Positions 12,501 through 45,210 of a DNA stretch of 64,000 bases are shown piece by piece. Each line of letters opens with the position of its first letter. Within the stretch, counting starts at the first letter, position 1. The position numbers were made by a program, and so were the translations under genes. Origin of the DNA: Callorhinchus milii (lineage: Eukaryota). The notes below the pieces were generated by a model. That model was not told the origin of the DNA, searched no databases, and saw only the letters and a program-made list of their open reading frames with translations. The stretch spans positions 1,118,001 to 1,182,000 of the forward strand of contig NW_024704742.1 of assembly GCF_018977255.1 (NCBI RefSeq). Reading direction: 5' to 3'.

Positions 12501-15500
12501 GTAAAGTGTAGTGACTATATTTTGTGGGCGAAATGCGGCAGCCAATTGCACACAGCAGTGTCCCACAAATAGTCGTAGATTGGGTGACCAAATTTTTTTT
12601 AATATATATATAGATACATATATATATATATATATACACAGGGAATACCAATACAGAAGACAACCATGTGTGCTTTTGGTCATCTAGGATTTCCCTTTTA
12701 GTTGGTTCACCTTAAACCACAGAAGGTTGATTTCTGATTTGGATGGTGTTTGGGGATTTTTTAATGTTTAGGTCAGGGGAGCCCCTGAAAGCCAATCGGA
12801 AACTGGAACATTGGCAGAAGCAGAAGCAGAATGTCCCGTGACGTGACCATTATTTCCAGTGATAAATATCACATCACACGCTCCATGTGTACCCCTATTG
12901 TTAATAGGCACACTTACGTTTTTATGCTTTTACACAGTTTCCCATCATCTATTCCACTCCATTTTTCCAAAAGCAAATCGTCAACTGTGGCAATTCCTTT
13001 CATGGATATAAATGAAGAGTGGTGTTTTAGAGCAATATCATCCTACAGTAAAAAAAGAGGTGTGAGAATACGACATACTACAAGATGACACCTGCTATAT
13101 TTGGAATTATATTTAATAATCATATTAATCATTATTCTTGCAAATATACCACAAGCTATAGCCTTTGCTTTTCCGTGATTGTTACAAAAAGTACGATCAA
13201 AACAAGTGATATAAAGAAAATAATTGCTTTTCTCCATTTATATAAACGATCTAGACCAGTATAACGGGCCCAATTTCTAAGTTTGCAGACAACACATTAA
13301 TTGTGTAGGCAGTTAGTACTTCCTATTATTCCACTTCCTCCAATTGTGAAGAAGACTGTAAGCAACTTTAGGGGACGTGAACAGACGAGAAGACATAAGA
13401 CTCCACAGGGACATTGACCTTAGGTTGACGTTGGAACGGTAAGATGATAAGGTTGGCTAACTGGGTCAAAGTTTGTCTTTCATCCAAACCTCTTGTGATC
13501 TTGTGCGTTCTGTTTGTCAGTCAGTTACAGAAGGATACTGACTGAGTCCTGTGCAGAGGTACCTCCCTGTACCTCTACACTGGGCATTGGCTCATGGCAT
13601 CCTGCACACTAAATGCATTCCTCAGTCTATAAACTAAAACCTTACCCTTTCCGCAAAGCATTCCGCAAAGCTTTGGTTCACTCCTGCAAATATTTTGCTA
13701 ACGACCGGCTGGATTGTACAGCCTGTGAAAACAAATGACATTAATACACAATCAGGGATCAATGGCACAGAGCATCAGGAATATAGGTGTTCTGTAGTTC
13801 GTATGAGCAATAGTGGAAAGCTCCATAGTGCTTCAAAAACACAGAGTAATACTTTGCATTTTTCCCCAGTGAATTTCTTTGTGTATACCAAAGCAAGTTT
13901 CCTTTGCTGGGGGAAGGAATCCTTTTTCTGTTAAACAGCACCCAGAGTCAGCAATAAACACTCTTAGGAGCTTCATGCCTCAAACTGGAGAGCTTTCCTA
14001 CGTCATCTCAGACAAACGTGATTTGGGGCGCAGAGAAAAAATAAAGAAAACATACTGATCAGTCAGTAAAATCTTATTTAAGCAGTTTTTAGGTGTATAG
14101 GAACAGTTTCTACCCAACGCACATCTATAGCAGATAATCTTGCGCTGCTTACCATTAGCAGGTCCTGTGTCAGACGTGTGTGATGCTAATTTAACAGGAA
14201 GAGGCACGAGCTGGTCACTGGTCTGTCCACTTCCCAGCTGCCCTTTCTCTCCTTGACCAAACGCATAGACCTTGCCAGATGATGGAACGAACACAAGCGT
14301 GTGATAACTGTGAAAAACACAATTTCACTTAAAGTTAACGATTACAATTCTGCAAGATGAAACTTTCTGTTTGCCGATTATGACTCCACATCTCGGCCCA
14401 CCCCACCACACACACACACACATACACAACACACACCAACACACGCACACACACTGAATCTCATTTTAAAAATCAAGTGTTTTTCGGCTGGGTTTCTAGC
14501 ACAGGGTGGGAATAGCTCTGGGCCCCCAGGGTTGGCTTCACTTCTGCAATGAACCAAAAGACGTCTGAACCAACAGATTCTGAGCTTGCGTGTCTGTTGT
14601 ATTCAGTCAGCTCCTAATTGAAATGAGAAGGGCCGCAAACCAGGTTTGGCAGTTACAGCAATGAGGATTAGGGCAATCGTACTGCAATAGAAACAGAAAT
14701 TTACAGCACAGGAAAAGATTGTTCGGTTAAGTCTGTCTCAATCAAACATAGTCATGGCTATTGACCCTCACTCAGACTAATCCCTGGCACTGGTCATCAC
14801 TTAAGTTCACACCTGATCCTCAGCTCTACATTGTTTGCAAGGTGAGGGATAGGGCACACTGGTTTTGGCATCGATCATATTTATCAAAGATGGTTAATTA
14901 GTTCCAGTGACAATTAACATATCACACCACTCAATTTTCATTCCATGGTTTTGAACTCATTTCACCCAGGCCCTAGAACAACAACAACAAAATGACATTC
15001 ACAGAACGCCTTTCATGTCAGGAGGACGTCCCAAAGCGCTGAGCAGTCAGGTGTCGGGGCCCGAGCCTGGGGGAGGGGTGTGTAGAGGTAAGGGAAGGCA
15101 GAGAAGTGGGAGGAAGACCAAAGCCATGGTCGAAGAGAAGGGTCTTGAGACCGGCCTTGAAGGAGGCGAGGGAGTAAGCGAGGCGAAGGGACCATGAGAT
15201 GGAGTTCCAGAGTGTGGGGGCAGAGAGGTTGAAAGCCCGACCACTGATGGTAGGGTGGGTCGGTCGGGAGACATGGAGCAGCCCGGAGCCCGCTGAATGG
15301 AGGGAGCGGGCAGGTTGGTAGGGAGTCAGCAGGTCAGAGTGGTAGGAGGGGGCAAGGCCATGGATGGCTTTAAAGAGCCACACAACCATGGAAATTTATG
15401 GCACAGAACAAGGCTATTTGGCCCATTATGGGTGTGCAGGCTTCCTCAAGAGCCATCCTTCCAGTTCCATTTTCCTGCCCTTTCCCCATATCCTATTTGC

Positions 15501-18500
15501 TCTTCAAAAAAAAAACTTTCATTCAGCGACATTAGTTTGGCTCTGTGCCACCTCACCTCCCGCAAGCTATCTGAGAAACTTTGGCACCAAACAACTCAGC
15601 GACCAGGCGAGGTTTGATCTCATCCCTTGTCGTGTTGTGTCCAAGTTGCCCTAAACTCCCGGCTCCAAAGGTAAAAACTGATCCATCCTGGAATATAGTG
15701 AGAAACACAACAAAGTCACATATCCAATGGGAATTTACTGTGCCAAATTGTCTTCAACATTTAATAATAATAGTAATAATCCTTGCATTTGATACAGCGC
15801 CTTATCACGTCTTTGAGATATCGCAAAGCGCTTCACAGAATATACTGTAACGTGCAGTGACTGTATATTTTGTGGGCAAAACGCGACAGCCAATTGCGCA
15901 CAACAGTGTCCCACAAACAGTCGTGGATTGAGTGATAAGATTATATTTGCCCACAAAATACATAAGCCAGAATTAGATTTAAAATATCCTGAGGACAGAC
16001 CTTTGTCAGAGTAGCAGTGTGCTCCTCTCCACAAGAGATGTAGACAATCTTCTTGTGTTCTAATTGTTTTACATAGGTAGGAGAGTGTCGATCTTGAGGA
16101 GAGAGAGAGAGAGAGTGTGAGAATTATCCCATTACCAATGTGCTTTGCATAGGAATGTCTGTATATCAAGAGTCTGTTTGGGGAACCCTCCTGGTGCAAA
16201 CTGGTGCTACATTTACGTACAAAAACAATCACTGCTCTTGGCAGAAATTGCTTGTGATCCATTTCAATGTGATAATATGCTATAGAAATACAAGCTCTTT
16301 TTCAATGGAACAAGTGTGAGTTGGGTGACAATGTTTCCTGAGCTGCTGAGTGAGACATGTGGAGTTGGACCTTGTACTGGAAGCAGAGTCAGCATGAAGC
16401 AAATGGAAAGAAGAGGATAAATAAAACAAAACACATTTATGTTCTTACCCTCTGTGTCACCGAGCCCCAGCTGTCCACGGTCATTCCTTCCCCAGCCAAA
16501 CACAGCCCCCGAGACAGAGAGCGCAAAGCTGTGTGCTCCTCTTGCCGTGATTTGAGCTATTGGGATCCCAGCCATAGACTTCAAACACTGGGAGCTGGTG
16601 TGAGAGGCATCTTTTGTACCAAGACCCAACTGGCCATGAGCGTTCTGCCCCCAAGCGATAAGTCGACCATCTTGTAATCATCAAAGGAAATCAGTCCATC
16701 AAATAGAAAACTGAAGATACGTTAAACATTCATTCCGATTATTGAAGTCAATTGTAATGGGCTCTGTCACTAAGATCAAAGTAGCTCGGCACAGAGCAGC
16801 AAGCAAAGCTGCGTTCCTTTTGGCTCCGAACCACACATCTAAACCAGGCAAACAGGAAGCTGGGCTATATTGCTAAATCAGTTGAGTTTAGATCCCCAGA
16901 TGATATAATCAGGCTGCGCTGTGTCCTCATAATAATAATAATAATAATAATAATCCTTGCATTTGATATAGCGCTTTTCACGTCGGGAGGACGTCCCAAA
17001 GCGCTTCACAGAACACACTGTAAAGTGAATTGACTGTATATTTGTGGGCGAACGCGGCAGCCAATTGCGCACAGCAATGTCCCACAAACAGTCGTGGATT
17101 GAAAATGACCAATTTATTATTGTTTTTTGGTTTTGGAGGGATTATTATTAGGCTCTGTGTGGAGTAAGGAAACTTGCCCAAGGTTTCGCCCTGCCTGGAA
17201 TTGAACTCAGGTCTCTCGCTTGCAAAGCGAGTGCTCAACCACTGAGCTACAGGACTCCATCTGACCACACCGTCAATATCGCATACAATTGGTTCACTGC
17301 GACATAAGGGGACTGTCCAGGCCTAAGAGGTAGTGGAGAGGAGAGCAATGAGGATGATCCCCAGTGTTGGAAGAATGAGGTATGAGCATTGACTTGACAA
17401 ACAAGGACTCATCAGTCTTGAGAGAAAATGACTTAGATGTATCCTAGACAGTAGAAGAGGAGGACATAGGTTTAGCGTCATAAAAGGCATTCAAGGCATT
17501 GTAAAAGGCAGATACCAGAATGCTTTTCTTTATACAGAGGGTAATCAACTACTGGAAAGCTGTTTAAAAAGCAGCTTGATACAGTGCTTGTGGGGAATGA
17601 TAAGGGTGGGTTTTCTGGAGGGATGAGGTTGAATAGGTTGAAAGGCGGTCTTCATCCAAACTAATCTTGCGACCTTGTGAACCAGTGAATTTATCTCTCA
17701 AGCCATATATTAGATATTTTGTTTTACCTTTGAATAGAGCCATGGAATGATTCCTTCCACAGGCAACTTGAACTACGCACTTCCCACTCAGGTGCTTTAA
17801 CAATCTGTAGTTGCACAAATACCAATAATTAACACAAAGTCTTTATAGTAATAAAAACTTTTGATATATTATGCATTTCATCACATCAATATCACGTCGT
17901 AACACTTGCATTTTGACATAGCATCTCATTACATCATCGAGACAAGACACACTGTAAAGTGGTGTGACTGTATTTTGCAGGTAAAGCAGCAACCAATTTG
18001 CACACAGCAGGGTCCCACAAACAACCACAAAGTGAATGGTAAATGCTATTGTTAGACAGGACACAAGGATAGACGTTCTTCTCTTCTCGAATAGTGCCAT
18101 GAGATCTTTAACGTCCACTTGGAAAAGCAGACGGGACCTCCAGTGTTGCATTGGAGTGTCAGCTTAGACTGCATGAGTCCCAAGTCCTGATGTGGAGCTT
18201 TATTCTTTTGCATAGGTGGCACACAGATAGAACTCCCAATGCGGTTAGGATGCTCTTAACTATTGCGATGGGTATTATTCCACTGAACCCTGCACCCCAG
18301 ATTTCAGAACTATACAAACATGACTGATCATCACCTGTAAAATAGTATAACTCTTACCGTGGCAAGCTTCTGACTCAGAGGCAAGAGTAGCTTCCAGCTG
18401 AGCAGGCTGACACACATATTTGAAAAGCATAATAATATATCCATCGCAAATAGTGCAGTGAACAGAACAAATTCTCGACAACCATCAAAATACACCTTTA

Positions 18501-21500
18501 TCTCAATGTAAAGACCTTTAACATGTAAAGTCATAGTCCTCTAATTACAAGTACACAATCATTATATTTTGCGCTCCTGTGAAGCACTTTGAGACGTCTA
18601 GAAGACGTGAAAAGCGCTATACCAAATGCAGGGATTGTTATTATTATTATTTTATCAAATGCAAGGATGGTTATTTACATGTAGAGGAAGCTGTGGTGTT
18701 TTTGGTGGTACCCAACCCAAAGAGGCACGAAATCAGGAAGAAGAAAGATCCGATTTTCTACGAGAATGGGATCTTGTACCAAAATTATTTTAGACAATTT
18801 AGATGATTGAGAAATTCATCAATTGTATGACGGTGAGACATGCAATGTATGAGGATCCCAGGTCCGTGCTGTTAGTCGGTGACAGCTGCCCTGCCTGAGA
18901 TCAGCTAACTCCACTCAAACCAGAGATGTGCACCCCATTCCTGATACCGGAAAATGTCTATGCATAGGTTGCCTGCAGAGATGGCCAGAACTCTGAATGT
19001 GGTTAAGATGCGCTTAAGAGTGGCGATGGGTTTCCGCGTGTGTTGGAAACCCGAGTGACCAAGTGTATGGTCGTTACTCAACCCTGCACCCCGGATTTCA
19101 GAACTATGCAAACATGACTAACCATCACCTGTAAAATAATATAATTCTTACTGTGGCTTAATTTCGGAGTACGTCTTCGAAGTCAGCCCAGGTTGCGTGC
19201 TTTGCAATTTGAAGGAGAACACACTTCCTTCTTCCAAAACAAACAAGATGTGCGAGGCTCCACTGTCCACAAAGCAAACCCTTTCTGCACTGAATTCATC
19301 AAGCCGTGCTATACGGTGGCAAAAACACAACATTATCAGAATCAAATTCATGTCATTGGAAATATCATGATAAACTACCTGCTGTTTGCAAACAACCTTT
19401 TGTGTTAGACCAACATGGTACATGGATAACAAATTGGATTCATTTAAAATAATAATAACCTTTGCATTTGGTATACTATCATTTCCTATTATATCCAAAC
19501 GAGTTTTATTTAAAGTGTAGTAAATGTTTATTTGTAGGCGAATGCAACAGTTAAAGTCACACCCAACTTTTCGAAAATTGAGTACCATGGAATCCTTAAT
19601 GTCCACTTGACCAGGGAGACAGGACCTCACTTCAACATCTCACCCAAAGGACGGCAGCTTTGACAATGCAGTACACTCCCAGCACCAGTTAAGAAAGCCT
19701 TTTCTTGAGTTCCCCGCATTTCAGTCTAAGACTAGAATGATTTTATAAAAAGTTCCATAAAAATTGAGAGCCTTGGTTCGATTCCTGGCAGGGCGAAATG
19801 TTGGACAAGTTTCCTTACTCCACACGCCTCTGTTTACCTAACAGTAAGTAGGAACCCGGTTGTTAGTCAATTGGCGGATCGCTTTACTGGAGGTAATATT
19901 TCCTTAAAAAAAAAAAAAAATTGGTCACTCAATCCACGGCTGTTTGTGGGGACGCTGCTGTGCGCAATCGGCTGCCGCGTTTCGCCCACAAATATACAGT
20001 CAATTCACTTTACGGTATATTCTGTGAAACGGTTGAGACGTCTCGAAGACGTGATGAGGCGCTATATCAAATGCAGGGATTATTATTTTTATATTCTTAT
20101 GATTCACAGGAGAAACATGGTGAAATAATTATGCAAGATCAGTGTTTTTTTTGATGACTCCATCTGATGATGGTTCCATTTCTCTCTCACATGTATGACC
20201 GGGCTGAGCGATAGACTTAACGTCAACCTCAGGTCAATGGGCAGATAGAGACTAGACCAGAGGGTAAATAATAACAATAAATAGATATTCGCTACTAACG
20301 TCATAATATCTAGGCTCAGAATAATTTTGAACTTTCGATATTTCATTTGAAAAATAGAAGACCAAGCGGTTACAAAATAATTCTGGACTCACAAACTGCC
20401 TATTGAGTACAATACAAAACAAAGAGATCTCAGTCTCTCAACTGTGCGATGATTCTCCTCTCCCAGAACAGAACTTCCAGAACTTCCACATTGCTAAACT
20501 ACACATTGATGACTCAATGCAAATGCATAGCAGTCAAATTAGGAGAATCCAAAACTGAATTGAATACTGCCTTCCAACACTGTGTTTAATTTACACATAA
20601 AACAAAACTGAGCGCTGTGGCTCTCGAGATAGTGCTTCAGGTAATCACTGAACTTGTAAAGGATTTACGTGGAGACCTGAAGTTTGATCAGGAAGGTATA
20701 GGCTACATTCTGTTTTTTGTGCTGAATGTGTGGGGTGGGTTTATGAGACTGTGGAAGTCCATAAGGCTCAGGGAACGCTCACCTTCATTTTGCGTTCATC
20801 AATATCTGCCAAAAGTACTTCTGTTTGCAGAAGATCATATGCTGTTGGCGAACGTAACTGGTGATTTCATACGCTGCATTCACCATCTTGAACACTGGGT
20901 CATTGATGGTGGAATTATGAGGGACCTCAAAGGTATTGATTGGAAGATACTAGGGGCATCAGTCCCACTTGTTGATTCTTATTGGTACCTGACACCAACT
21001 TCAGCCTGGACTCAGTCCTGCCAACCCGTGCTCAGAAGGGAGAAGGGAACTCTGGCTGTTCAGGTTCTAGGACGGCAAGCTTGCCTGACAGAGCCTTCAA
21101 TGGCAGTTTATGTGGTTTTAGCTGGTTAATCTCCAGCAGTATCCTTACGCATACTCTGGGATGCCTGAGCTTTGGCTAACTCTAATTATTGAGCAGTGAG
21201 AGTACTTTCTTATCAAAAATCTTTGTTTTGAATGAATCTAAATGTTATTCTCAACGGCCGAGCATTGTTTTGACTCCCATTATTCATTTGCCGGGCTCTC
21301 TATAACATATTTCACTCTTGTAATCCTTGATGCCAATTAATACTTTATTCAATCTCCCCAGACAGACGAAATATTAAATTCTCTCAAGGAATTACAAGAA
21401 AAAATAAGCAAAAAATACAGTTATAAAAAACGTCTAGGTTCTGACAGGATTTCTATCTTCAATTCACTAATCACACTAAATGTAAATAAAGCCTATTGTT

Positions 21501-21953
21501 AAATGCAGTTTGTGTGTTTGCTTCAGTCAGGAAGCCAGACATTTTATACAAATTCACGCTTTCTTGCCGTATCTGACTTGCAGGTTTTTTTTTGGTCAGC
21601 CGGGTGTCTGAAACCCATCACCGTGCCTCAGGGTATCCCAAACAAGCTGAGAATTTCATGCTTCCCACCTCCACACGGAAATTGCAGAGAGAGATTGTAG
21701 AAATAGAACAGTTCCAACAATTGGAGGCGCGAAGTGTCATTTACTTACCAGGTTTCCTCTGCTTCTGGCCGTTCATTGTATAGAGAACCTTCCCATCCTC
21801 AAGCACGAACACAGTGAATCCGTCTCCGCAGCAAATGTGCCGAACCCTCCCGTGTTTGAGAAGCCTGTCGCTGTGAGTGGCTTCTGAACTCACCCCGTCC
21901 TGCCCAGGGGTTAGACCCAGCTGTTTGCAGCCCACCTGCCCCCAGCACAACAT
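369..21953 (-). CDS. Gene A: small HERC-family E3 ubiquitin/ISG15 ligase (RCC1-like domain + HECT), HERC3/4-related, possibly HERC7-type; 3' end outside window
   Basis: 21 GT-AG exons read by hand join in frame (2700 nt, 900 codons, no stops). RCC1 repeats ([31 protein letters not shown]) and HECT N-lobe ([40 protein letters not shown]). Confidence 0.93.
1371..1456 (-). CDS. Gene A exon 20
   Basis: [17 protein letters not shown]. Confidence 0.88.
1620..1865 (-). mobile_element. Deu-domain SINE
   Basis: Reverse complement of the Deu core (GGTGCCGTCCTTCAGATGAGA..TTAAACCGAG..GATGTTAAAAATCCCCATGG). Confidence 0.75.
2168..2234 (-). CDS. Gene A exon 19
   Basis: [22 protein letters not shown]. 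Confidence 0.85.
2760..3129 (-). mobile_element. tRNA(Ala)-derived SINE with L2-type tail
   Basis: Head with A box TAGCTCAGTGG and a B-box-like motif; tail ...aagcgctttgagacgtc...aaatgcaaggattatt; many copies in the window. Confidence 0.85.
3333..3499 (-). CDS. Gene A exon 18
   Basis: [31 protein letters not shown]. Confidence 0.93.
4607..4747 (-). CDS. Gene A exon 17
   Basis: [19 protein letters not shown]...LIWFPEW. Confidence 0.93.
4970..5295 (-). mobile_element. SINE, same family
   Basis: Same body and tail. Confidence 0.75.
6138..6266 (-). CDS. Gene A exon 16
   Basis: [18 protein letters not shown] (HECT start). Confidence 0.88.
6446..6526 (-). CDS. Gene A exon 15
   Basis: [22 protein letters not shown]. 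Confidence 0.85.
7944..8030 (-). CDS. Gene A exon 14
   Basis: [18 protein letters not shown]...; cag/gtaaga. Confidence 0.82.
8796..8953 (-). CDS. Gene A exon 13
   Basis: [19 protein letters not shown]...LRILQKLYE. Confidence 0.88.
10161..10353 (-). CDS. Gene A exon 12
   Basis: [25 protein letters not shown]. Confidence 0.9.
11435..11540 (-). CDS. Gene A exon 11
   Basis: [26 protein letters not shown]. Confidence 0.9.
11982..12041 (-). CDS. Gene A exon 10
   Basis: [19 protein letters not shown]. Confidence 0.9.
12918..13042 (-). CDS. Gene A exon 9
   Basis: [30 protein letters not shown]... Confidence 0.85.
13646..13722 (-). CDS. Gene A exon 8
   Basis: [25 protein letters not shown]. Confidence 0.88.
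14153..14307 (-). CDS. Gene A exon 7
   Basis: [25 protein letters not shown]... Confidence 0.92.
14980..15385 (-). mobile_element. L2-type LINE 3' fragment
   Basis: [33 protein letters not shown] plus tail. Confidence 0.85.
15557..15687 (-). CDS. Gene A exon 6
   Basis: [18 protein letters not shown]...VSQIACG, 131 nt. Confidence 0.92.
16001..16092 (-). CDS. Gene A exon 5
   Basis: [31 protein letters not shown], 92 nt. Confidence 0.92.
16449..16670 (-). CDS. Gene A exon 4
   Basis: [16 protein letters not shown]...[16 protein letters not shown], 222 nt; aag acceptor. Confidence 0.92.
16930..17260 (-). mobile_element. SINE, near full length
   Basis: tRNA head to (TTA)n tail. Confidence 0.85.
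17728..17804 (-). CDS. Gene A exon 3
   Basis: [28 protein letters not shown]1 motif, 77 nt. Confidence 0.9.
19152..19308 (-). CDS. Gene A exon 2
   Basis: [24 protein letters not shown]...; tag/gtaaga, phases fit. Confidence 0.85.
19770..20090 (+). mobile_element. SINE, 5'-truncated
   Basis: B box GGTTCGATTCC through tail. Confidence 0.8.
21749..21953 (-). CDS. Gene A exon 1
   Basis: [13 protein letters not shown]...QKQRKP; donor gtaagt. Confidence 0.9.
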
Positions 21954-22192
21954 GCTGCCCTCTCCCTCTGTCTGCCTGGGTCCCTCTCCCTCCCTCTCTC
22001 TGTGTCTCTCCCTGTGTCTCTGTCCCTTTCTCTGTGTGTATCTCTGTCTCTCTCCCTTTCTCTGTGTCTGTGTCTCAGCTGATCTCTGTCTCCTGCTCTG
22101 TGCTGCTCCACTACTGAAGACTCTGATTGAAGCAGCCCAGACACATCAGTGCTCTGCTGAGCTGCCAACTCTCCTCCTCCTTCAAAACCAAG

Positions 22193-22333
22193 TGACGTGT
22201 AAGCTTGTGACTCATGCCTCCCCTCTATCTGGCCATCGTGTCAACACCGGCTCGCGTGGAGGAGGAAACAGAAACTGAAACTGTGGTAACCAGTTTCAAA
22301 GCTACTGCAGTATGTGATCAGGAAACAGAAACC
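22193..22333 (-). promoter_or_regulatory. Gene A promoter: ISRE/IRF sites, AP-1 site, CRE-like site
   Basis: GGAAACAGAAACTGAAACT 22264-22282; GGAAACAGAAACC 22321-22333; TGACTCA 22208-22214; TGACGTG 22193-22199. Confidence 0.75.
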
Positions 22334-22559
22334 ACAACATGAATGAGACTGTCATTAACTCCACCTGCAGCTGATCCCTGAAACTAAAGAGCTGGGCCTG
22401 ACTGTTACCTATGCACTTTCGGTACATAGAGCAAAGTGATAAAAGGGTGTCATGTACCTGACGGAATGTAAAATCGGGTTTATGAATCATTCAGACTTGT
22501 CATCCTTCCTAACAGTTCACTTTGTGACGGTTTTATTATGAAACACTATTAACCCTTGT

Positions 22560-23175
22560 GCTTGAAGCATCTCCTATCACGTCTCAAAGCGCTTCACAGG
22601 ATTTATTGCGGAATGCTGTGACTGTATTTGTAGATGGATGCGGCGGCCAATCTGGGCACAGAAGTGTCCCACAAACAGCCACAAACAAATGGAGCGATTC
22701 ACTAATTTTTTTCTGGAGGACTGTTGGCCAGGACATCGCGAGGAACTCCCTTCTCTTTCTAAATAGTGCCATGGGATCTTTAACGGCCACTTGAACCAGC
22801 ACAGACGAGACCTCGGTTTAACATCTCTTCTGAAGGGCAGTACCTCTGACAATGCAACATACTCCCAGCGTTGGAGTGTCAGCCTTGACTGCAAGATTAA
22901 AGTCCAGGCTTGAGCCTACACCTTAAACAAAAACCGAGAGAGCTGGGAAAACTCAGGCAGCATCTATGGACGGTTGCCCCAGGTCTGACGAAGGGTCGTG
23001 GACCCGAAATGTTGACTCACTTTTCTTTCTCCGTAGATGCTGCCTGACCTGCTGAGGGTTCCCAGCTCTCTCTGTTTTTGTTTCAGATTTCCAGCATCTG
23101 CAGTATTTTGTGCTTTGAGTCTACACCTCTTTTGAATCAAGAGACAAATGCTGCCGAATGAGCCAGACCGACATT
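22560..23175 (-). mobile_element. Deu-domain SINE interrupted by a hairpin element
   Basis: Deu core about 22725-22860; the head resumes after 23115. Confidence 0.75.
22924..23114. mobile_element. Penelope-type non-autonomous hairpin element
   Basis: Inverted repeat gagagctggg..gcagcatcta / tagatgctgc..cccagctctc; flanked by a 14-bp near-duplication TTGAG(C/T)CTACACCT. Confidence 0.7.
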
Positions 23176-24134
23176 AAAGTGCAAATTTTATATCTGATTT
23201 ACACGTTCATTAATTTGCATGATTACATAATTAGAAACAGTTTCATGCTGCAAGGGAGGGGGGTTAATTAACTCATCGTGTCAAAATCGTGTGAGATAGT
23301 TCAACAATAACAAATTGCATTTACACAGTAAACCTCACATAAGTGGTATCAGTTGGGACAATAAATTTAATACGACTTATGCAAAGTATGAGTTATGTGA
23401 AACTCTCATAAGTGGTATCATTTAAATAATAATCCTTGCGTTTGATATAGTGCCTTATTATGTCTTCGAGACATCTCACAGAATATATTGTAAAGTGGAT
23501 TAACTCTGTATGATTTATGAAAAGTTATGTATAAGTCAGATTTTATATATACTGTACTGGCTGGTGATATTAAGGTAAGGTTTCTGTACCATGTTTAACC
23601 CATGCACAATAAAACTGTGGTCGCTCATTATTTCCGTATACAGTGCTGAACAATGCTATACCTCATGTGCAAAAAACATGTCCTGTACAATGAATGACAC
23701 AACCAAATAGATTTCAAAACAGAACTGTTTTAATAGAATATAAACTGTTCGACGTCTCAAAGCGCTTCACAGAACATATTGTACAGTGAGTTGACTGTAT
23801 ACTTGTGGGCGAAACGCGCATTTTTTGGGGCGATCTGCATCGCCTGATGCCATGATGGCTGGTCAAAACCTCATCTTCCGTAGCTGTTGTGTGTTCTTAC
23901 TGCGCGTATGGTCTTTCGGCATTGCAGGCAGTAAGTGGGCACGATGGGTCTGGACTTGGGTTCCCGGGAGTGTCTCACATAGAGCACTGCCTGTGCGGCT
24001 TCAAGGCTGACAACTGTGAAGGGTCCGTTCCACACTCCACAGGATCAGGTAACCTCTCGAAAAACACCATATCAAATCCAAGGATTTTAAATTTTTTTGC
24101 TGTAAACATTACCGCAATTTTTTTTTTTTTTACT

Positions 24135-24140
24135 TTTATT
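24135..24140 (-). terminator. Candidate polyadenylation signal of gene B
   Basis: AATAAA on minus strand about 480 nt after the stop. Confidence 0.45.
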
Positions 24141-24620
24141 TTTATACAAAGAGGCAGGTGGCCATTATTTTTAATTTAATACATAATTATTACTTCATTG
24201 CAGGCATTCTTCATGTCTTTTTTTTAAGCAAACAAAGAAAATCAATATAAATCAGGTAAATATAAAGTTCAATTCTCCACCATCTCCCAGGATGCCAAAT
24301 CAGCTTGAAATCACCAAGTGAAATGTTTGTCCCTCAATACGCCTCTTCATTGTCACTGCTAAATGGACAAATTTGGCATGAGCTCTGAAGCCCGACCTAC
24401 TTGAGAAGAAATCACGGGAGCAGACCAGGCACGAATGCTTGTACTAAAACTCCACGAAAATTGGTATGTATTTTTTAAAAAATTATCTCAATCATTAATG
24501 CTTTCCCCAAATTCCATTATTTTCATATTATTTTGTCAATAAGGAATTGAATGGCAAATCAAGTTCAAGTCTTGGGCATTTCTCTGGTGAGTAGAGGAAG
24601 TGGTTTTGTGACTGCAGACA

Positions 24621-24841
24621 TTAAGGTGGTATTGCATTGAACTCTTTGCCGAATTTGATTGCATGGAGAACCTTCTGTTTTAAAATTGACAGGCTGCTGT
24701 AGTTGGGAAGATCAAGAGTGTTGGTGCACGTGTAAGCACGGGGATAATGCAAATCCGGTTCATTACAAGTGGCACGAAGTATCCTAATCCTGAGAGCTCC
24801 AATTCCTTCCACTGGAATTCTGTCACTTCCCGTCAGAAAGG
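24621..24841 (-). CDS. Gene B exon 23 (HECT C-lobe, stop)
   Basis: FLTGSDRIP...[18 protein letters not shown]...EFNAIPP*. Confidence 0.94.
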
Positions 24842-36800: not shown

Positions 36801-39800
36801 CACAGACGTCGTGCAAATTTTTAGTCGCTGTTCAAATTTTTCTCCACAAAAGCCACCTAATTAACACTCCTACTCTCCACCTCGCTCCCCATAGCCTTTA
36901 ACATTCCTCTTCTTCAAGAGGTTAAATAAAATGTTAGAACTGCCTGATGGTTCAGTTTCTAAACGCACTGCTTACTGTTAAAGCCACTACTTTACTTACG
37001 TAAAACTACACCATACAGACAGACCCAGAAGGTCTTGAGTTCAATCCCGGGTCTGTGCTGATCTCAGTTGGAGAGCAGCTGCAGAAAGCTGCATTGGAAC
37101 AAAGTATTCCTGGTCTGGAAGGCGAAATCAGTCAGCGACCCACTTTTGATCATTATTTATTATCCCATTGCTGGAAAGTCCACTGGTGTGGATATTGGGT
37201 GAGTAATAGTTGTGTTGCTCTCGCCAGCCACCAAGCATCTCTGACACTCACTGTCTAGACTCACACATGAAGAACGACTGCTTTGGATGAGGTACTTGAG
37301 GGTTACCAGAGTCAATTCCTTCAGCACAGATGGCGTGCGTGAGGGAAATTGGAGTGTGTATTTCAAACAAAAGCATCCTCAAATAAAAGTTAACGGTAAC
37401 CTGACGCTGTTAGGTGAGACACTTACTTATTTTTCTTCAGTCTCTTATAATCCGTTTGCAATTGTTCTGAAAGGAAATGATCTACTGTTGCAATTTTCTT
37501 CAAATTAGTAACTGAGGCTTCAGTTGCAAGGTTGACTGGTTTCTGAACAAATAATACAAACAATAAGACGGCACATAAACGGACACTGATAGAAGATACA
37601 TTGCAACCCATTATCATAATAATAATCCTTGCGTTTGATACAGCTCCTTATCATGTCTTCGAGACATCTCAAAGCGATTCACAGAATACACTGCAAAGTG
37701 AACTGACTGTACATGTTGTGGGCGAAACGTGGCAGCCAATTGCGCACAGCAGCGTCCCACAAACCGAAGGACACAGCTAGATGATGAAGGGCAGAGCTAG
37801 AGGATGAACAACATTCATTCTTAAGATGCCAATGGGTTGAGCAAAACACCAAAACACGATGGTTGCTGTTGCACTTCAACGCAGTTACGTCTTTCAGAAT
37901 ACGTGTGAATGGTACAAGGCCCAGACAGTACGGAAAGGAAGCATTTGGCAAACAAAAACTAAAACCAAAGCTACAACGTGCCTGGTTATGAATGCAACAC
38001 GTGAGCGATTTGTTCTCTTGAGTATCGTGTACGTATTCTGTTATGCTTTGCAAAACATGCTAACGTAATATAAAAATGCTGGCTGTCCATAGGGGTGGAG
38101 CAAATGACTCCCCCGTGCCATTACTCCTGATTGAAGCAGGCCACAACAATCTAGACATCTTCAGTACAGATAATATCACCTATTTAAATACGTACTGATT
38201 TCTGTACCTCTTTCTCAAAGCAATCCACAAAGGATTGGTTCTCTCCTGCAAATATTCTTCTGATGGTTGGCTGAATTTCACAGTCTGTGAAAGCAAATTC
38301 CCACGAATAGGTTACATGAGTAATATGGAGAAAAATTCTCAATGTCTCTTTTTTTTAAAAAAAAGCCATTGTTTTTATTTCAATTTTAACCCGTTTTAAA
38401 AAAAAAAGTTTAACTTGGAGCAAAATTACGTTTCCTTACAGTAGCCAACGATTAGTTTTACCACAAGGATAACAGCTGAAGAAACGATGAATTCAGGTGA
38501 ACACTAAGCATCACTCTTTTTTGTAATATTTCCCGTAAATCACAACTGCATCAAATAACTGCTTACCGCTTGCAGGTCCTGTGTCAGACGTGTGTGATGC
38601 TAACTTAACAGGAAGAGGCACGAGCTGGTCACCGGTGTGTCCACTTCCCAGCTGCCCTTTCTTTCCTTGACCAAAAGCATAGACCTTGTCAGATGATGGA
38701 ACGAGCACAAGCGTGTGATAACTGTGAAAAACACATCCACATTTAGATTAAACGTAGAAAAATTATAATCTGTGCATTTGGTGTAGCGTCTTTCACGTCA
38801 GGAGGAGTTACCAAAGTGCTTGATAGGTTATTACTGTACAATGGAGTGACTGTGTTCTGCGGGCGAACGTAAAGATTAGCCCAGGTTTGTGCTGTTGCTT
38901 TGCCCCAACGAACAGCTTTTAGCACTGCACTAATCAATTTATCAGCTGTTATTGTCTCAGAGGGGTTAAAATTAGATACTGCATATGTAAACTGGAGATC
39001 ACTGCTCTAACAGCAGCTATTTGCTTTCGAGATGTTTCTCAGTCGAGTAAAAAAACAAAGCAATTAGCAGATTAAAAATAAAATCACTCAACTGAAAATA
39101 ACCTAAACTGCTGTAGAGAATATATTTTATTCTTGCAAATTTCTCCCTGTCCTGAAGGTGTGTTGCTGTGTGTAAAAAAAAATAATTCCAGCCCAAACAA
39201 GCAGGGAATATGAATTATTAGAAGATTTACTCAAGTGGCACTGGAGTTAATATGCAACGCAATTCTAAATCATGAGGGATGTTGGACAATGGAAAAGGCC
39301 ATGTGTAAAATATTATTCTCTGAAGAGTTACAAGAAATGAGACATGGTTCTGATTTAATCTGCAGTGAACAACACATACTCTTCTGGTACATTGATTGCC
39401 TATGTTGCTACCTTACCTCCCGCAAGCTATCTGAGAGACTTTGGCTGCAAATAACTCAGCGACCAGGCGAGGTTTGATCTCATCCCTTCTCTTGTTGTGT
39501 CCAAGTTGCCCAAAGCTCCCGGCTCCAAAGGTAAAAACCGATCCATCCTGGAAGAGTGACATATGTGTCTTATTTCTTATCAATGCCAAACTGTAATACA
39601 AGATGGCTAAGAGAACTGAGCCGTTCTTTCCCTCACATCTGAATAATTGTTGACTATCCTTTTCGCTACCATTAAATGTATACATTCCCAAACATAACAG
39701 TCTAATCCACAAGAAACATCAGTGTAAATCATCAACATCAAATAAATCGAATTTCTAGAACAATAATAGCAATCCTTGCATTTGATATAGCGCCTACAAT

Positions 39801-42800
39801 GTCTCAATATGTTTGACAATAATGACTCTTAAGTGTAGTGACTAATTATAGGCAATCACGGCAGCCGGTTTGCATTAAGCAATGTCCTGCAAGCAGCAAT
39901 GAAGTGAATGATCCATTTATCTGGAGAATTCTCAGGGAAACACCTTGAGAAATTTGCTGAGTGTCCTGTTCAACAATCCCCCGGTAAAATTGATCCTTCA
40001 CTTCATGGTAGCTTGTGGGATTTTGCCATGCACAAGTTGACCGCTGCTTTCTCCAACTGAGCCAGACTGACAGCTAAGATGTACCAATAAGATAAAGATC
40101 TAAACAAATGAATGTCTTAAAAACTAAATTCAGTACAAACCTTTGTCAGAACGGCAGTGTGCTCCTCTCCACAGGAGATGTGGATTGTCTTTTTACCTTC
40201 TAATGGCTTTACGTATGTAGGCTTGTGTCTGTCTGTGAGAAGAAACAATTAACAGGTTAATTCAGTATTCCATCATTTCCAATAGCAAGACTGCTTTCAA
40301 AATTCAATACAGAGAATATAGCTTAAAGAAGGTATCCAGTCAGTTCATGTACAAAGATGCCAGGGCAAAGCTTTTAGAATATTTCAGATAATGAGACGAA
40401 CGGCCCTCATATACTGTATAACGTCAATAATCTTAATAATGATCCTTGCATTTGATACAGCGCCTTATCACATCATTGAGACGTCTCAAAGCGCTTCACA
40501 GAATATACCGTGAAGTGGTTTGACTGTGTGTATTGATGACACCTGGATGCATGAAACCGACTTTCAAAAAAGACCACTTAAGATTTGGGGACTGAGTGGG
40601 TTCAGGACGCTGACCTTTGTCAACCTGAGGTTTTGAAGCTCAAAAACATCAGCAACGAGCGATCGCCCCACTTCCTGGATTGTGTTTGAAAAAATGGCAA
40701 TAGAAAGAAAAAGTCACAATTATTTTTGGGATGTTCTTACCCTCTGTGTCACCGAGCCCCAGCTGTCCACGGTCATTCCTTCCCCAGCCAAACACAGCCC
40801 CCGAGACAGAGAGCGCAAAGCTGTGTGCTCCTCCTGCCGCGATTTGAGCTATTGGGATCCCAGCCATAGACTTCAAACACTGGGGGCTGGTGTGAGAGGC
40901 ATCTTTTGTACCAAGACCCAACTGGCCATGAGCGTTCTGCCCCCAAGCGATAAGTTGACCGTCTGGTAACAGATAAAAACGAGACACGTTTCTCTTTTCT
41001 AAGCAGTGCGCGTTCTACATTTCACATCATTTCCTCTAATTCTTTGGAAACAACAAAACAAAGTTTCTGTAACTTTTCCAAATAATTCTAGAACTGCGGC
41101 AATCTTGTTTTTTACACACACCCTCTTGTCCAGAGTGGAATGTCTAGGCCGCAAGTGTAATAATAATAATCCTTGCGTTTGATATAATAATAATAATAAT
41201 CCTTGCATTTGATACAGCGCCTTATCTCATCTTCGAGACGTCTCAAAGCGCATCACAGAATATACCGTAAAGTGAATTGATTGTATATTTTGTGGGCGAA
41301 TCAGTGACTGTACGTGGTTTGTGGGTGAAAAGCGGGAGTCAATTTGCGCACGGCAATGACCCACAAACAGCCATGAAGTGAATGACCAATTTTGTTTGGG
41401 GGTTTCTTGGTCAGGACACCGGGAGAAACTTCCTAACTTGGCTTCTTTTATACCTAATTAATTGCAGCTGCTATGAACTTACATCATTTAATATGACATG
41501 ACAATAATAATCATCAATTAGCATGTGGAGAGGTCCACTCCCGGACTGGTTTGTATTTAATTCTTCATTTTAATTTAACATCTAATTAAGTTTCTGAAAG
41601 CAGATTTTAGATTTGCTTGTTTACCTTTGCACAAAGCCAGTGAATGATCCTTTCCGCAGGCCACTTGAATAACACGTGTTTGACACAAAGTCTTCAGTAA
41701 CCTACACATGAATAAAAAAAAGTAAGGTTTTTAAGCATAAAATCTGAAGAAGTTTGGAATAAAAAAATCCAGAGCTGTCCTGAACTCATAGAATGGTGTG
41801 AATCTCTCTCTACCCTCTTTCAAGTCCCGCCTGAAAACTTTCCTGTTCGACCGTGCTCACGGCCACCTCCCCAATCCCCACCGGCTCTGAGTGCTCTGAG
41901 ACGCTGCCCTGCATGGAGGGCGCTATATAACTGCAAGTTGTTGTTGTTGTTGTTGAATCAGACTTGATGGACTGAATGGCCTCTCCTGTGTTCTTAGAAA
42001 TTCTCATGTATTGATATCTGTTTATTGTACTCTTTCAGTTCCAATTCATGATCTGCGGCGATGCGCAAACCCCCAGAGACTCCTTTCCTTTCTGCCAATA
42101 TTATGGAGTAGAAGATTGGGGGTTCAAGCCTCATTTTAGGATGAGATTGACACTCCATTGCAGTGCTGGGCGTAGCTGTATTGTCGGGAGAAGTGACCTC
42201 CTAATGAAATGTTAACCAAGGTCCAGTCTTCCTGTTCTGGTAGACACTAAACATCAAGTGGTACTTTTCAAAAGGACAAGTTTTTTTCCCGATCTCCTGG
42301 CCAACGAACCTCCAGATAAATTGATGGTGGCTGTTTGTGGGGATATTGCATGTATGCAAATTGGCTGCTGCATTTGTCTACAATTAGTGACTACACTTTC
42401 CAGTAAATCCTGCAAAGCAGTTTGAGATGTTTTAATATCATAATAATAATAATAATAACAATAATGCATTAATATAGTACCTTAGCACGTCGTCGAGACA
42501 TCTTGAAGTGCATATACTGCAAAATCGTGTGACTGGGTATATTTTATCCTAGAACACAGCAGCCAATTTGCACACAGCAAGTCATTTTATCATGTAATAT
42601 TCCAAGGGATTATTAAAACTCTTACTCTGGCTTTGTCAGGCGCAATTCTTTTGAAGTCACTCCTCGATTCTCTTTAAGTGTCCAAGAAAAGATATTTCCT
42701 CCTTCAGTGATAAACACGACACGGGATGCTTCGCTGTCCACAAAGTGAATCCTCTCCTTCTTGAATTCATTAATGTACCCTACACGTAAAGAAAATAATT

Positions 42801-44767
42801 AAAGCATTGGTATACAAGAATGAATAGAGTCTAAGCAACCTACATCCGCAGAGATAACGCGCTCTTACTAAGGTTAATGTACTTGGCATTGTTTTATAGA
42901 ATGCTGTTACCAAGTTGGGAAAGGTAAACAAGTAGACTCGATTTCTGGAATAATTACAGGGATCAATTCACTCTCAGCTGAATTTTTCATTCTCCTTCCC
43001 CTCTCTCCAACCCTCCCTGATACAGTAAATCTGGCCAGACCTGACTTCAGCAGATTTTAATATCAGAATTCACAAATGGCCTAGTGGGCAAAGGAACCAT
43101 TCAATCCAGCAGTGGACTGGGAAGGCACAGAACCAGAGTCTGTGCTGAGTTGGCTGATCTCCGGTGAGACAGACTTTGAGGAGCTGCAATTGCCCTCAAC
43201 AGCCAAAGGGTTACGCAGGAGCCACTAACGCACACTATCGGTTACACATGAGTTAACAATATACGGTAACACAGAAATTCACAATGTACACTAACAGTAA
43301 CACAGGAGTTAACAATACACTAACAGTAACACAGCGGTTAACAATACACTAACAGCAACACTGGCGTTAACAATGTACACTAACATCGGGGCTAACCATG
43401 CAAATTTGTTTTTGAACCAAGCCTTGATCATTCTGCTTGCTATCTGCTATTTTGTATGTATTGAGGGCTGGACTCAGTAATTGAGCGAGCTGTGCTGTTC
43501 AGTATCTATCGCTGTGAAACCAAACAACAGTTGTAAGAGCGCCTTTCATGTCGAGAGGACGTCCCAAGGTGCTGGGCAATCAATGTTTTGGACCCGAGCT
43601 AGGGGTCGGGATCGGGGAGGGTGGAGGGCAGGGGGGGAAGGAGGGTGACCGAAGCGGGTCTTGAAGGAGGCTAGGGAGGGAGCGAGGCAGAGGGACTGCG
43701 GGATGGAGTTCCAGAGGATGGGGGCAGAGTGGCTGAAGGCCTGCCCGTCAGTGGTGGGACGGGCGAGGCGGGGGATGTGAAGCAGACCGGAGCCGGCTGA
43801 GCGGAGGAGCGGGCGGGTTGGTAAGGGATTAGGAGGTCAGAGAGGTAGGGGGGAGCAAGGCCATGGACGGCTTTGAAGGTGAGGACCAGGATCTTGAACT
43901 GTATCCTCTGTGTGATGGGAAGCCGGTGGAGTCGGGCGAGGGTGGGGGTGATAGGGTCGCGGGGTCTGGTGCGGGAGAAAGCAATGTAAAAAAAAGAGAG
44001 GAAGTAGTGAAATCAAAGTGAACTTTATCCCTATTTAAACGGGTAGTACAGTATTGTCGGAGCAAGAGCCCAATGTCAAGTACAGGATTAGTCAAATTAA
44101 AAATATCCAGAGTTCAAATCCATGTAATATGTTTCTTTTAATTCACTTTTCTGTCTACACAATGTAGCGGGAAATATCAAGAGATTTCCCAGACAACTAT
44201 AATTTAGACATTTAACTTATTGACTGTCCAGAAATAAGTTATTAAACATACCTGTACGATTTGGTTATTTTTTTATTCATATACTATTGATAAATATACT
44301 AAGAGAAAGCTACCAACAAATTCCTGAGGGAAATCAGCCTTTTCTATTCACGTCCCAAAACTATTCGTAATAAATATTTGTAAAAGAGATGTGCAGATGC
44401 CTCTGCAAGACTTAGATATTTTATTCACTGTCTGTAGATCAATAAATCAATCAATCAATAAATCAATAAATAAATCAAAGAACAAAATGTTTGACCACCA
44501 AGACATGAAGTCGAAGTTTCTTACCGTCCCCTGACTTGCAGGTCTGGATGTCATTTACTTACCAAGTTTCCTCTGCTTCTGGCCGCTCATTGTATAGAGA
44601 ACCTTCCTATCCACGAACACGAACACAGTGATTCCGTCTCCGCAGCAAATGTGCCGAACCCTCCCGTGTTTGAGAAGCCTATCGCTGTGAGTGGCTTCTG
44701 AACTCACCCCGTACTGCCCAGGGGTTAGACCCAGCTGTTTGCAGCCCACCTGCCCCCAGCACAACAT
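24621..44767 (-). CDS. Gene B: complete small HERC-family E3 ligase (RLD + HECT), paralog of gene A, about 997 aa
   Basis: 23 GT-AG exons join in frame (2994 nt including TAA). Catalytic Cys in YPRAYTC (codon 24726-24728). Same exon phases as gene A. Confidence 0.94.
25574..25673 (-). CDS. Gene B exon 22
   Basis: [27 protein letters not shown]. Confidence 0.93.
26601..26784 (-). CDS. Gene B exon 21
   Basis: [16 protein letters not shown]. Confidence 0.93.
27158..27243 (-). CDS. Gene B exon 20
   Basis: [17 protein letters not shown]. Confidence 0.9.
27370..27625 (-). mobile_element. L2-type LINE fragment
   Basis: [20 protein letters not shown]. Confidence 0.85.
27865..27931 (-). CDS. Gene B exon 19
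   Basis: [22 protein letters not shown]. Confidence 0.92.
28978..29144 (-). CDS. Gene B exon 18
   Basis: [12 protein letters not shown]...[10 protein letters not shown]. Confidence 0.93.
29492..29629 (-). CDS. Gene B exon 17
   Basis: [18 protein letters not shown]...LLWFPNQ. Confidence 0.92.
30928..31047 (-). CDS. Gene B exon 16
   Basis: [19 protein letters not shown]. Confidence 0.86.
31538..31627 (-). CDS. Gene B exon 15
   Basis: [22 protein letters not shown]. Confidence 0.88.
31817..31879 (-). CDS. Gene B candidate extra in-frame exon (14b)
   Basis: ttttcttcacag / [21 protein letters not shown] / gtaatg; 63 nt, phase 0-0; no homology support. Confidence 0.45.
32662..32742 (-). CDS. 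Gene B exon 14
   Basis: [27 protein letters not shown]. Confidence 0.82.
33736..33884 (-). CDS. Gene B exon 13
   Basis: [19 protein letters not shown]...LTILQALYK. Confidence 0.88.
34476..34671 (-). CDS. Gene B exon 12
   Basis: [24 protein letters not shown]. Confidence 0.92.
35443..35548 (-). CDS. Gene B exon 11
   Basis: [26 protein letters not shown]. Confidence 0.9.
35640..36070 (-). mobile_element. Deu-domain SINE
   Basis: Head, Deu core and tail all present. Confidence 0.75.
36614..36673 (-). CDS. Gene B exon 10
   Basis: [19 protein letters not shown]. Confidence 0.9.
37427..37542 (-). CDS. Gene B exon 9
   Basis: [24 protein letters not shown]. Confidence 0.85.
38208..38284 (-). 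CDS. Gene B exon 8
   Basis: [25 protein letters not shown]. Confidence 0.88.
38567..38721 (-). CDS. Gene B exon 7
   Basis: [19 protein letters not shown]. Confidence 0.92.
39417..39547 (-). CDS. Gene B exon 6
   Basis: [18 protein letters not shown]. Confidence 0.92.
40141..40232 (-). CDS. Gene B exon 5
   Basis: [31 protein letters not shown]. Confidence 0.92.
40741..40962 (-). CDS. Gene B exon 4
   Basis: [16 protein letters not shown]...[11 protein letters not shown]. Confidence 0.93.
41625..41701 (-). CDS. Gene B exon 3
   Basis: [25 protein letters not shown]. Confidence 0.9.
42626..42779 (-). CDS. Gene B exon 2
   Basis: [32 protein letters not shown]. Confidence 0.85.
43230..43400. 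repeat. About 30-bp minisatellite
   Basis: 4-5 imperfect units of tacactaacagtaacacaggagttaacaa. Confidence 0.7.
43525..43980 (-). mobile_element. L2-type LINE 3' fragment
   Basis: Same ORF2 end and tail. Confidence 0.85.
44563..44767 (-). CDS. Gene B exon 1
   Basis: [13 protein letters not shown]... Confidence 0.9.
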
Positions 44768-45005
44768 GCTGCCCTCTCCCTCTGTCTGCCTGGGTCCCTC
44801 TCCCTCCCTCTCTCTGTGTCTCTCCCTGTGTCTCTGTCCCTTTCTCTGTGTGTATCTCTGTGTCTCTCACTTTCTCTGTGTCTGTGTCTCAGCTGATCTC
44901 TGTCTCCTGCTCTGTGCTGCTCCACTACTGAAGACTCTGATTGAAGCAGCCCAGACACATCAGTGCTCTGCTGAGCTGCCAACTCTCCTCCTCCTTCAAA
45001 ACCAA

Positions 45006-45210
45006 GTGACGTGTAGACCAGGGACTCCTCCCAACCTGTCCCCTTTTTACCAGGTTCTGTGTGCGCGTGCGAGCGGTAGGATTGGCTGAAGTACAGGAGG
45101 ACAAAACAGAAACTCAGGCAGATATCAAAATAAAAAAAAAACAGATTCAAAGCTACTGCAGTATGAGATCAGGAAACTGAAACCACAACCTCAGTCATTC
45201 GCATGAGTCA
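45006..45210 (-). promoter_or_regulatory. Gene B promoter: ISRE, AP-1, CCAAT
   Basis: AGGAAACTGAAACC 45171-45184 in a block homologous to gene A 22296-22338; TGAGTCA 45204-45210; ATTGG near 45081. Confidence 0.72.

Follow-up and report, generated by a model that had tools for sequence, protein, structure and literature searches.

Locus and gene models

The DNA analysed here, hereafter the window, is a 64-kb stretch of the elephant shark Callorhinchus milii (contig NW_024704742.1, positions 1,118,001 to 1,182,000). By self-comparison and exon building, it was found to hold three tandem small-HERC genes, on the minus strand and in the order C, B, A. The subject of this work is the relationship between genes A and B, which are near-identical in some exons and strongly diverged in others, a mosaic most readily attributed to long-running gene conversion limited to exons. 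Positions are those of the window, and features lie on its minus strand unless otherwise stated.

Exon models were assembled from splice sites, which gave an open frame for both A and B. The coding span of gene A is 369-21953, with the ATG at 21953; 21 exons (900 amino acids) lie in the window and the last three beyond its left end. Its product equals XP_007900727.1 across all 900 residues in the window. The coding span of gene B, 24621-44767, has 24 exons encoding 1023 amino acids plus the stop, and its product differs from XP_042192342.1 only by two short insertions at alternative acceptors. Both proteins have the layout of small HERC E3 ligases, that is: (i) one N-terminal RCC1-like domain (PF25390, residues 2-338/339); (ii) a C-terminal HECT domain (PF00632), both domains exceeding the Pfam cut-offs; and (iii) a length of approximately 1000 amino acids. 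The HTC motif of rabbit HERC3 aligns in A, B and C, and its cysteine is the residue which we take to be catalytic in HECT. The best 60 PDB matches included no small HERC.

An exon mosaic between A and B

The longest shared block (21735-22201 in A) consists of the 5′ untranslated region (UTR), which contains a GA-rich tract at 21971-22076, the coding sequence of exon 1 (21953-21749) and 14 nt of intron 1; its partner in B lies at 44549-45015 (exon 1 coding sequence 44767-44563). The original prediction, made from the letters of this DNA, claimed near-identity over about 465 bp around exon 1. Actually, 22200-21736 and 44550-45014 differ at 11 of 465 nt with no gaps, and the exact limits (22201-21735 and 45015-44549) give a block of 467 nt. 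The coding sequence differs at 9 of 205 nt, the proportions of synonymous (pS) and nonsynonymous (pN) differences both being 0.044, and the 5′ UTR at 2 of 248 nt. The same prediction placed the start of the promoter in the block, and this part had to be dropped: a spliced contig extends over the block as far as 22201 and, in consequence, its upstream part may be all 5′ UTR. An excess of replacements in this block is borderline (7/159 against 2/248 in the UTR, p 0.03; against 4/307 for all neutral sites, p 0.05) and is not claimed.

In exon 4 (A 16670-16449; B 40962-40741) the count of 5 differences in 222 nt was obtained again, one silent versus four replacement, with a pS of 0.019; with 10 nt of intron 4, the converted segment is 16439-16670 in A and 40731-40962 in B. 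Exons 6 (A 15557-15687; B 39417-39547) and 7 (A 14307-14153; B 38721-38567), described beforehand as very similar, differ at 9 of 131 nt (pS 0.16) and 10 of 155 nt (pS 0.10), respectively, and are both best seen as older conversions. Exon 7 is shared with 14 nt before it and 8 nt after it (14145-14321 in A, 38559-38735 in B). These shared intron ends go beyond the splice consensus and, hence, fit what DNA-level exchange predicts.

The rest of the RCC1-like domain is different. Exons 2 (19308-19152) and 3 (17804-17728) of gene A, together spanning 17728-19308, have diverged from their counterparts in B (42779-42626 and 41701-41625), and exon 5 (A 16001-16092; B 40232-40141), apparently not converted in C. 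milii, is intermediate, with 21 of 92 nt differing (77% identity). Strong divergence was originally attributed to exons 2, 3 and 8-17, but it does not hold at the silent sites of exon 8 (A 13646-13722; B 38284-38208), where only 3 of 15.3 differ (pS 0.20), probably through an old conversion. Regarding the introns, said to share no obvious similarity beyond a few bases at the splice sites, 19 matched pairs were compared after repeat masking and removal of 15 nt from the ends; 18 of them score no higher than their 30 shuffles, and the pair of intron 1 is marginal (score 30 versus a shuffle maximum of 28); nevertheless, similarity reaches up to 14 nt at some exon edges.

Synonymous divergence is 0.02-0.18 in exons 1, 4, 6 and 7, whereas pS is 0.20-0.84 in the other 17 exons, and heterogeneity across all 21 exons is very strong (chi2 190, df 20, p 9e-30), in line with the initial argument that a single duplication date does not easily account for the pattern. 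Pooled synonymous divergence (dS) is 1.66 for exons 2-3, 0.85 for exon 5, 1.49 for exons 8-16 and 0.98 for exons 17-21. Four-fold sites differ at 4 of 116 positions in exons 1, 4, 6 and 7 versus 57 of 136 in the others. Among 529 same-residue degenerate codons, the longest run of identical synonymous codons is 66, the maximum across 20,000 permutations being 57. The GC content at third codon positions is 0.41-0.54 in exons 4, 6 and 7, with no extreme codon bias, and is higher (0.68) in exon 1.

The other 17 exons are also heterogeneous among themselves (p 3e-5). Due to the pS of exon 8, the pS of the long exons 12, 18 and 21 (0.40-0.47) and a candidate micro-tract where a HECT exon begins (34 nt at 522-555, identical to B 26754-26787), older or smaller tracts probably exist beyond the four clear exons. 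The suggestion that tracts lie in the RCC1-like domain is therefore right but incomplete.

Age of the duplication and conflict between trees

A homologue search with B yielded, among the best 120 of 1664 matches, many shark and ray proteins. The alignment comprised 56 proteins and the three gene models (59 rows); 10 duplicate, isoform or fusion rows were left out of the overview tree, and IQ-TREE was run on subsets of 20 and 22 rows. For the exons other than 1, 4, 6 and 7 (774 columns, 20 of the 59 rows), A joins an elasmobranch "A-type" clade (98/97) and B an elasmobranch "B-type" clade (100/99), each containing sharks and batoids, and a clade of A plus B is rejected by the approximately unbiased (AU) test (p-AU 5.5e-6). 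For exons 1, 4, 6 and 7 (237 columns), A and B are sisters (100/99) and the placement of A with the A-type proteins is rejected (p-AU 2.8e-4). Since A and B fall in separate elasmobranch lineages, these protein trees indicate that the duplication predates the split between Holocephali and Elasmobranchii, dated to 421 million years ago (PMC3692497).

Quartet sites, counted as species:orthologue, tell the same story for C. milii and Heptranchias: 24:1 in exons 1, 4, 6 and 7, and 11:38 elsewhere. Exon by exon, orthology gives the best tree for exons 5, 10, 11, 13, 14-17, 18, 19, 20 and 24 (B numbering), and the orthologous tree is rejected, with approximate p values, for exons 1, 4, 6, 7 and 8 (exon 8 at approximate p 0.005, with 26 columns). 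In exons 1, 4, 6 and 7 the joint A plus B branch may sit with the A-type proteins, with the B-type proteins or outside both, and either gene may have been the donor. In exons 12, 21 and 22 "swap" topologies are best, though not significantly, and exon 2 prefers an A plus B grouping weakly and not significantly. A homologue search with exon 1 gave only two C. milii clusters among its 5 candidates.

Relative ages of the events

A related sample, organism B (run X17), aligns to the introns of A at 12-14% difference, while the introns of A and B are unalignable with each other. This organism has one 207-nt contig confined to exon 4, with 25 differences (12%) from A. As A and B of C. milii differ by 2.3% in this exon, its homogenisation in C. 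milii appears to be younger than the split from organism B. The depth of that contig is 25 versus 14-19 on its neighbours, and exon 4 is probably collapsed or homogenised in the lineage of organism B too; extra recent duplicates would look alike. The exon 7 contig of organism B is 8% from A, compared with 6.5% between A and B, which suggests a conversion about as old as that split. Of the 6 exon 5 sites shown in a piece of organism B whose intron 5 is A-like, 3 have B-type letters, a hint of a lineage-specific tract in exon 5. At 85% likeness there was no usable cover of exon 1 in this run, and its piece of exon 6 may represent one copy or two.

Judging from sequence divergence, the events would thus differ in age: exons 1 and 4 young, exons 6 and 7 older, and exon 8 probably older still. 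At the sites where A and B differ, the residue favoured by the elasmobranch rows (which are non-independent) is that of A throughout exon 1 (7 of 7 sites) and exon 7 (6 of 6) and mostly in exon 6 (3 of 4); in exon 4 it is mostly that of B (3 of 4). The rows favouring A residues suggest that the leader end of B has been drifting away again after homogenisation.

Recurrence in sharks

The exon set was fixed on C. milii, and shark counts are, in consequence, out-of-sample. In exons 1, 4, 6 and 7, trees of B-type paralogs group by species (three each in Mustelus and Cetorhinus, two in S. canicula), whereas in the remaining exons the same paralogs group by orthologue. The alternatives, orthologue pairs for exons 1, 4, 6 and 7 and species clades for the rest, are rejected in four AU tests (p 1e-4 to 1e-43). 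The species:orthologue quartet counts, for exons 1, 4, 6 and 7 versus the rest, are 21:0 versus 13:59 for Mustelus and S. torazame (exons 2, 3 and 8 giving 0:11) and 10:1 versus 5:95 for S. canicula and S. torazame. These protein comparisons support that exon-limited exchange recurs in some shark lineages, not generally.

Seven elasmobranch A-type proteins (P0025, P0041, P0024, P0040, P0045, P0036, P0055) have an insertion of approximately 350-570 amino acids at the position of exons 16/17, and the five shark proteins among them have a further one of 83-120 amino acids after exon 7. Gene A of C. milii has neither; low-complexity repeats were seen in the one insertion-bearing protein inspected.

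Mechanism and alternative explanations

The reading that we favour, with a probability of about 0.9, is long-running, exon-limited interlocus gene conversion with events of several ages. A and B show what conversion is expected to leave: patchy silent identity; segments that group by species between flanks that group by orthologue (at protein level); and unchanged positions and flanks. Conversion was already the original prediction, and silent sites, AU tests and other samples all point to it; the tracts, described there as recent, are better read as being of several ages.

In general terms, A and B arose through tandem duplication before the holocephalan/elasmobranch split, and in the chimaera lineage DNA-to-DNA non-allelic conversion between tandem paralogs 23 kb apart would have acted wherever homology sufficed. 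Introns would have escaped early, by means of indels and insertions of short interspersed elements (SINEs), leaving each exon as a separate island. Exons 1 (with the UTR), 4, 6 and 7 (131-467 nt) would still be, or would have lately been, converted. Exon 8 would have been converted at an earlier time, and the exons that are short or change fast (2, 3, 5) would have escaped, together with most of the spacer and of the HECT domain. Each exchange would reset similarity, so that long, similar exons went on exchanging. The outcome would be two ligases with a partly common RCC1-like domain and leader, and a private spacer and HECT domain. Conversion as the molecular route, and escape through loss of homology, are in agreement with the lower pS of longer exons (Spearman -0.53, p 0.013), the product of length and conservation giving -0.58 (p 0.006). 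The 131-467 nt found here would be comparable to the approximately 130-230 bp of near-identity that mammalian recombination requires.

Several points weigh against this reading. The exon set was picked on A and B themselves and, hence, Fisher tests on this pair are post hoc. The trees were run under LG+G4 without a site mixture, and the per-exon AU values come from 2000 replicates, flagged as too few, which makes their p values approximate. The length correlation is lost once the four exons are removed (p 0.23), and homogenisation is absent from exon 2, which has 157 nt, and from several of the long exons of the 3′ part. As for sharks, quartets are 3:9 versus 4:116 for Carcharodon and Cetorhinus (exon 7 giving 0:9, and exon 1 not covered) and 3:11 versus 0:104 for Rhincodon and Chiloscyllium, with no species grouping in carpet sharks; elasmobranch A-type versus B-type quartets, 0:23 and 3:30, give no sign of exchange. 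Besides, the shark evidence is at protein level, from automatic gene models that can be chimeric, given that two UniRef models of the C. milii locus are B/A fusions. Finally, one contig behaviour at exon 4, described below, is not predicted by a simple two-copy node.

Selection might choose the shared exons together with homology, although we consider this elaboration doubtful. According to it, exons 1, 4, 6 and 7 with the leader and its interferon-stimulated response element (ISRE)-like motif would be a common module that spreads adaptive changes, notably in the region of blade 1, across paralogs; exons 2, 3 and 8 and the spacer would provide paralog specificity; and the partition would have re-evolved in chimaeras and carcharhiniform sharks. 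Shared exons might even permit B-to-A read-through splicing (cf. the UniRef fusions) and, in this way, combinatorial substrate-binding domains. The diverged exon 2 beside a shared, fast exon 1, repeated in Mustelus, is the one feature that hints at selection. An adaptive role of the exon sharing is conceivable.

An assembly or polishing artefact, in which the reads of one paralog overwrote the similar exons of the other, is very improbable. It would suit near-identity limited to exon-sized pieces, and contig depth figures are not copy numbers. Nevertheless, both copies sit in distinct flanks with 5-11 scattered differences, and an older annotation has an identical A protein, its B protein having a single changed residue, in exon 1 (judging from accession versions, the two annotations would derive from different assemblies). 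Contigs from 4 of 24 listed runs were also compared with 14000-22500, on the basis of 32 pieces and of 40 of the 481 rows of differences; being contigs and not long reads, they are silent on phase, starts and copy number. In runs X1 and X2, a 450-nt contig corresponds exactly to 21752-22201, with mixed A and B letters, and is overlapped on both sides by A-specific contigs (22172-22500 and 21593-21781). A contig that ends at the block limits and joins A-specific neighbours looks like a two-copy stretch, contrary to an artefact. In the same runs, exons 6 and 7 have B-type letters next to A-type ones. The exon 4 contig stops on its 5′ side at 16663, beside the last site that differs between A and B; on the other side it goes on into intron 4 of A, and half of the expected signature is thus present. 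In run X5, a spliced contig runs from an exon 1 that has A-type letters into exons 2 and 3 of A, and has 7 extra 5′ letters that do not fit A. The possibility, raised at the outset, that reads would expose the identical blocks as artefacts was not borne out by the contigs of the two other samples.

Just as improbable is that one gene is a chimera made by unequal crossing-over, as bat and rodent HERC5/6 are, in spite of the precedent within the HERC family (PMC7775381) and the concentration of similarity in the RCC1-like domain. Crossing-over would bring along introns and intervening exons, but introns 1-7 are unalignable, the exons lying between the blocks (2, 3 and 5) are diverged, with the orthologous tree as the best for exon 5, and four separate tracts of unequal divergence would be required. 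An ancient crossover might lie beneath later conversion, exon 2 having the weak preference mentioned above.

Preservation of these exons by purifying selection (at protein, codon or RNA level) since one old duplication is even harder to believe. In its favour, among the RCC1 exons, conservation between elasmobranch lineages without conversion is highest in exons 4 (66%) and 6 (75%). On the contrary, exon 1 is among the fastest exons, with just 35% conserved between elasmobranch lineages, and its protein is 90% identical between A and B yet 23-47% identical to any chondrichthyan row shown; constraint, in consequence, does not account for the A/B likeness. Silent differences are no commoner than replacements in exons 1 and 4, silent and UTR sites being as alike as replacement sites or more, and exon 4 of A is far more distant from organism B (12%) than from gene B (2.3%).

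An RNA or cDNA template is scarcely credible as well: it would explain tract ends 0-14 nt from splice sites and an exon 1 block that is maybe wholly transcribed, but A and B also share intronic bases that lie past the consensus (in intron 1, 9 nt beyond GTAAG), all introns were kept, adjacent exons were not co-converted and homology stops at exon edges anyway; a pre-mRNA template would look the same as the DNA-level exchange that we favour.

Other features of the locus

Upstream of exon 1, gene A has three ISRE-like GTTTCnGTTTC motifs (22265-22338) and gene B one full and one degenerate motif (45103-45189), all identified by consensus only. The segments A 22338-22288 and B 45189-45139, which include an ISRE-like motif, are identical at 47 of 51 nt. 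The window has 12 matches to GAAANNGAAA, with 5.3 expected (12 was reached in 1 of 100 shuffles), and 4 of these 12 GAAANNGAAA matches are just upstream of the two exon 1 blocks. From these motifs, A and B may be interferon-induced.

A and B belong to a 100/100 clade separate from rabbit HERC3 and tegu HERC4, and group with sturgeon, gar, lungfish and turtle proteins. The database name HERC3 was rejected for them, as they form no clade with tetrapod HERC3. This position and the ISRE-like motifs would fit the interferon-induced HERC7 group (PMC10003058; PMC11277259); the tree set had no labelled HERC7, and one carp match, XP_042617089.1, is absent from the accessions in the available part of PMC10003058.

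Gene C, the third small HERC (50918-63488), has its last 14 exons in the window and its 5′ part beyond the right end, and falls within the XP_042192337.1 cluster. An exon search with this gene found 1 of 46 candidates. Gene C has a long branch, which falls neither in the A/B clade nor with HERC3/4, and shows no sign of exchange with A or B, its per-exon protein identity to either being 8-66%.

Two UniRef models, P0001 and P0004, begin as B and end as A, with the junction at converted exons: P0001 has B exons 1-4 followed by A, and P0004 switches within residues 285-299. These fusions may be an annotation error, read-through splicing or a deletion allele.

In exon 4, at 16542, the A copy of the window has Arg190, whereas B and 47 of 47 elasmobranch rows have Gly, whose letter was also seen in contigs of two other samples. 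Since X1 carries a combination of letters at 16548/16542 absent from both window copies, Arg190 is probably a polymorphism, perhaps a rare allele. At 21841, the older model of B and run X2 have an Arg38Gln variant, both window copies having Arg; it is a candidate shared polymorphism.

Intron 2 of A contains a local duplication of the end of exon 2 and the start of the intron (18282-18363 versus 19076-19157, 90%; 18209-18273 versus 18961-19031, 75%). The segment 9222-9653 (A intron 12) is approximately 80% similar to 23530-24007 (in the spacer from the end of B to the promoter of A) and probably represents a low-copy mobile element. Between C and B, at about 48950-49300 on the plus strand, a decayed reverse-transcriptase-like fragment, judged by eye, is presumably a long interspersed element (LINE).

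Implications and comparison with known systems

Gene conversion itself is a well-known process, and A/B is a new instance of it, which stands out for its age, for its form of exon islands and for a recurrence that is partial. Conversion would here have persisted, as exon-sized islands, far beyond a duplication that took place at least 421 million years ago. Small-HERC trees from whole proteins or from the RCC1-like domain would misassign orthology in cartilaginous fishes, and gene models at this locus may be spurious fusions. Natural pairs in which the propeller is partly shared and partly private could reveal which parts set substrate or virus specificity (cf. cat IFIT1/IFIT1B). Literature searches, whose scope did not extend to subscription papers, supplements or PMID 35101889, found no report of HERC conversion in cartilaginous fish or of gene conversion in HERC7, nor any literature on exon-restricted gene conversion between vertebrate paralogs.

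In the HERC7 subfamily of non-mammalian vertebrates, lineage-specific expansions are known, and the subfamily has been reported from the elephant shark (PMC10003058; PMC11277259; PMC13030082). Its members resemble A and B in their 24 exons, ISRE motifs near the start and length of about 1000 amino acids. The word "conversion" is absent from the available part of PMC10003058, and "gene conversion" from those of PMC11277259 and PMC6002735. The latter describes blade 1 as the antiviral determinant of HERC5/HERC6 and calls the elephant shark copies HERC3. By approximate mapping, exon 1 (residues 1-68) covers the region of blade 1 and evolves fast between species, as in HERC5/HERC6; but blade 1 differs between the mammalian HERC5/HERC6 paralogs and is common to A and B.

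In the bat and rodent HERC5/6 chimeras the RCC1-like domain is shared (96-99% amino acid identity), and the spacer and HECT domain come from another lineage (PMC7775381). Both cases involve a small-HERC tandem locus with sharing of the RCC1-like domain. But while the HERC5/6 chimera is a new third gene with one unequal-crossover breakpoint, A and B involve no new gene and show a patchwork domain (exons 2, 3 and 5 are private); a single-breakpoint chimera with the whole RCC1-like domain and its introns does not describe them.

The preprint bioRxiv 2021.03.25.437018 offers a general parallel only. The other specific parallel is mammalian IFIT1/IFIT1B, in which gene conversion is recurrent and full-length trees mislead (PMC4887208). 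Both systems are old tandem antiviral paralogs whose 5′ part has been repeatedly homogenised within species while the 3′ part keeps orthology. Nevertheless, IFIT1 has a single contiguous tract with one recurrent breakpoint, whereas A and B have four exon islands between unalignable introns. In addition, unlike IFIT1/IFIT1B, the A/B duplication is at least 421 million years old, the exchange takes in the UTR, and the pair is known from sequence alone.

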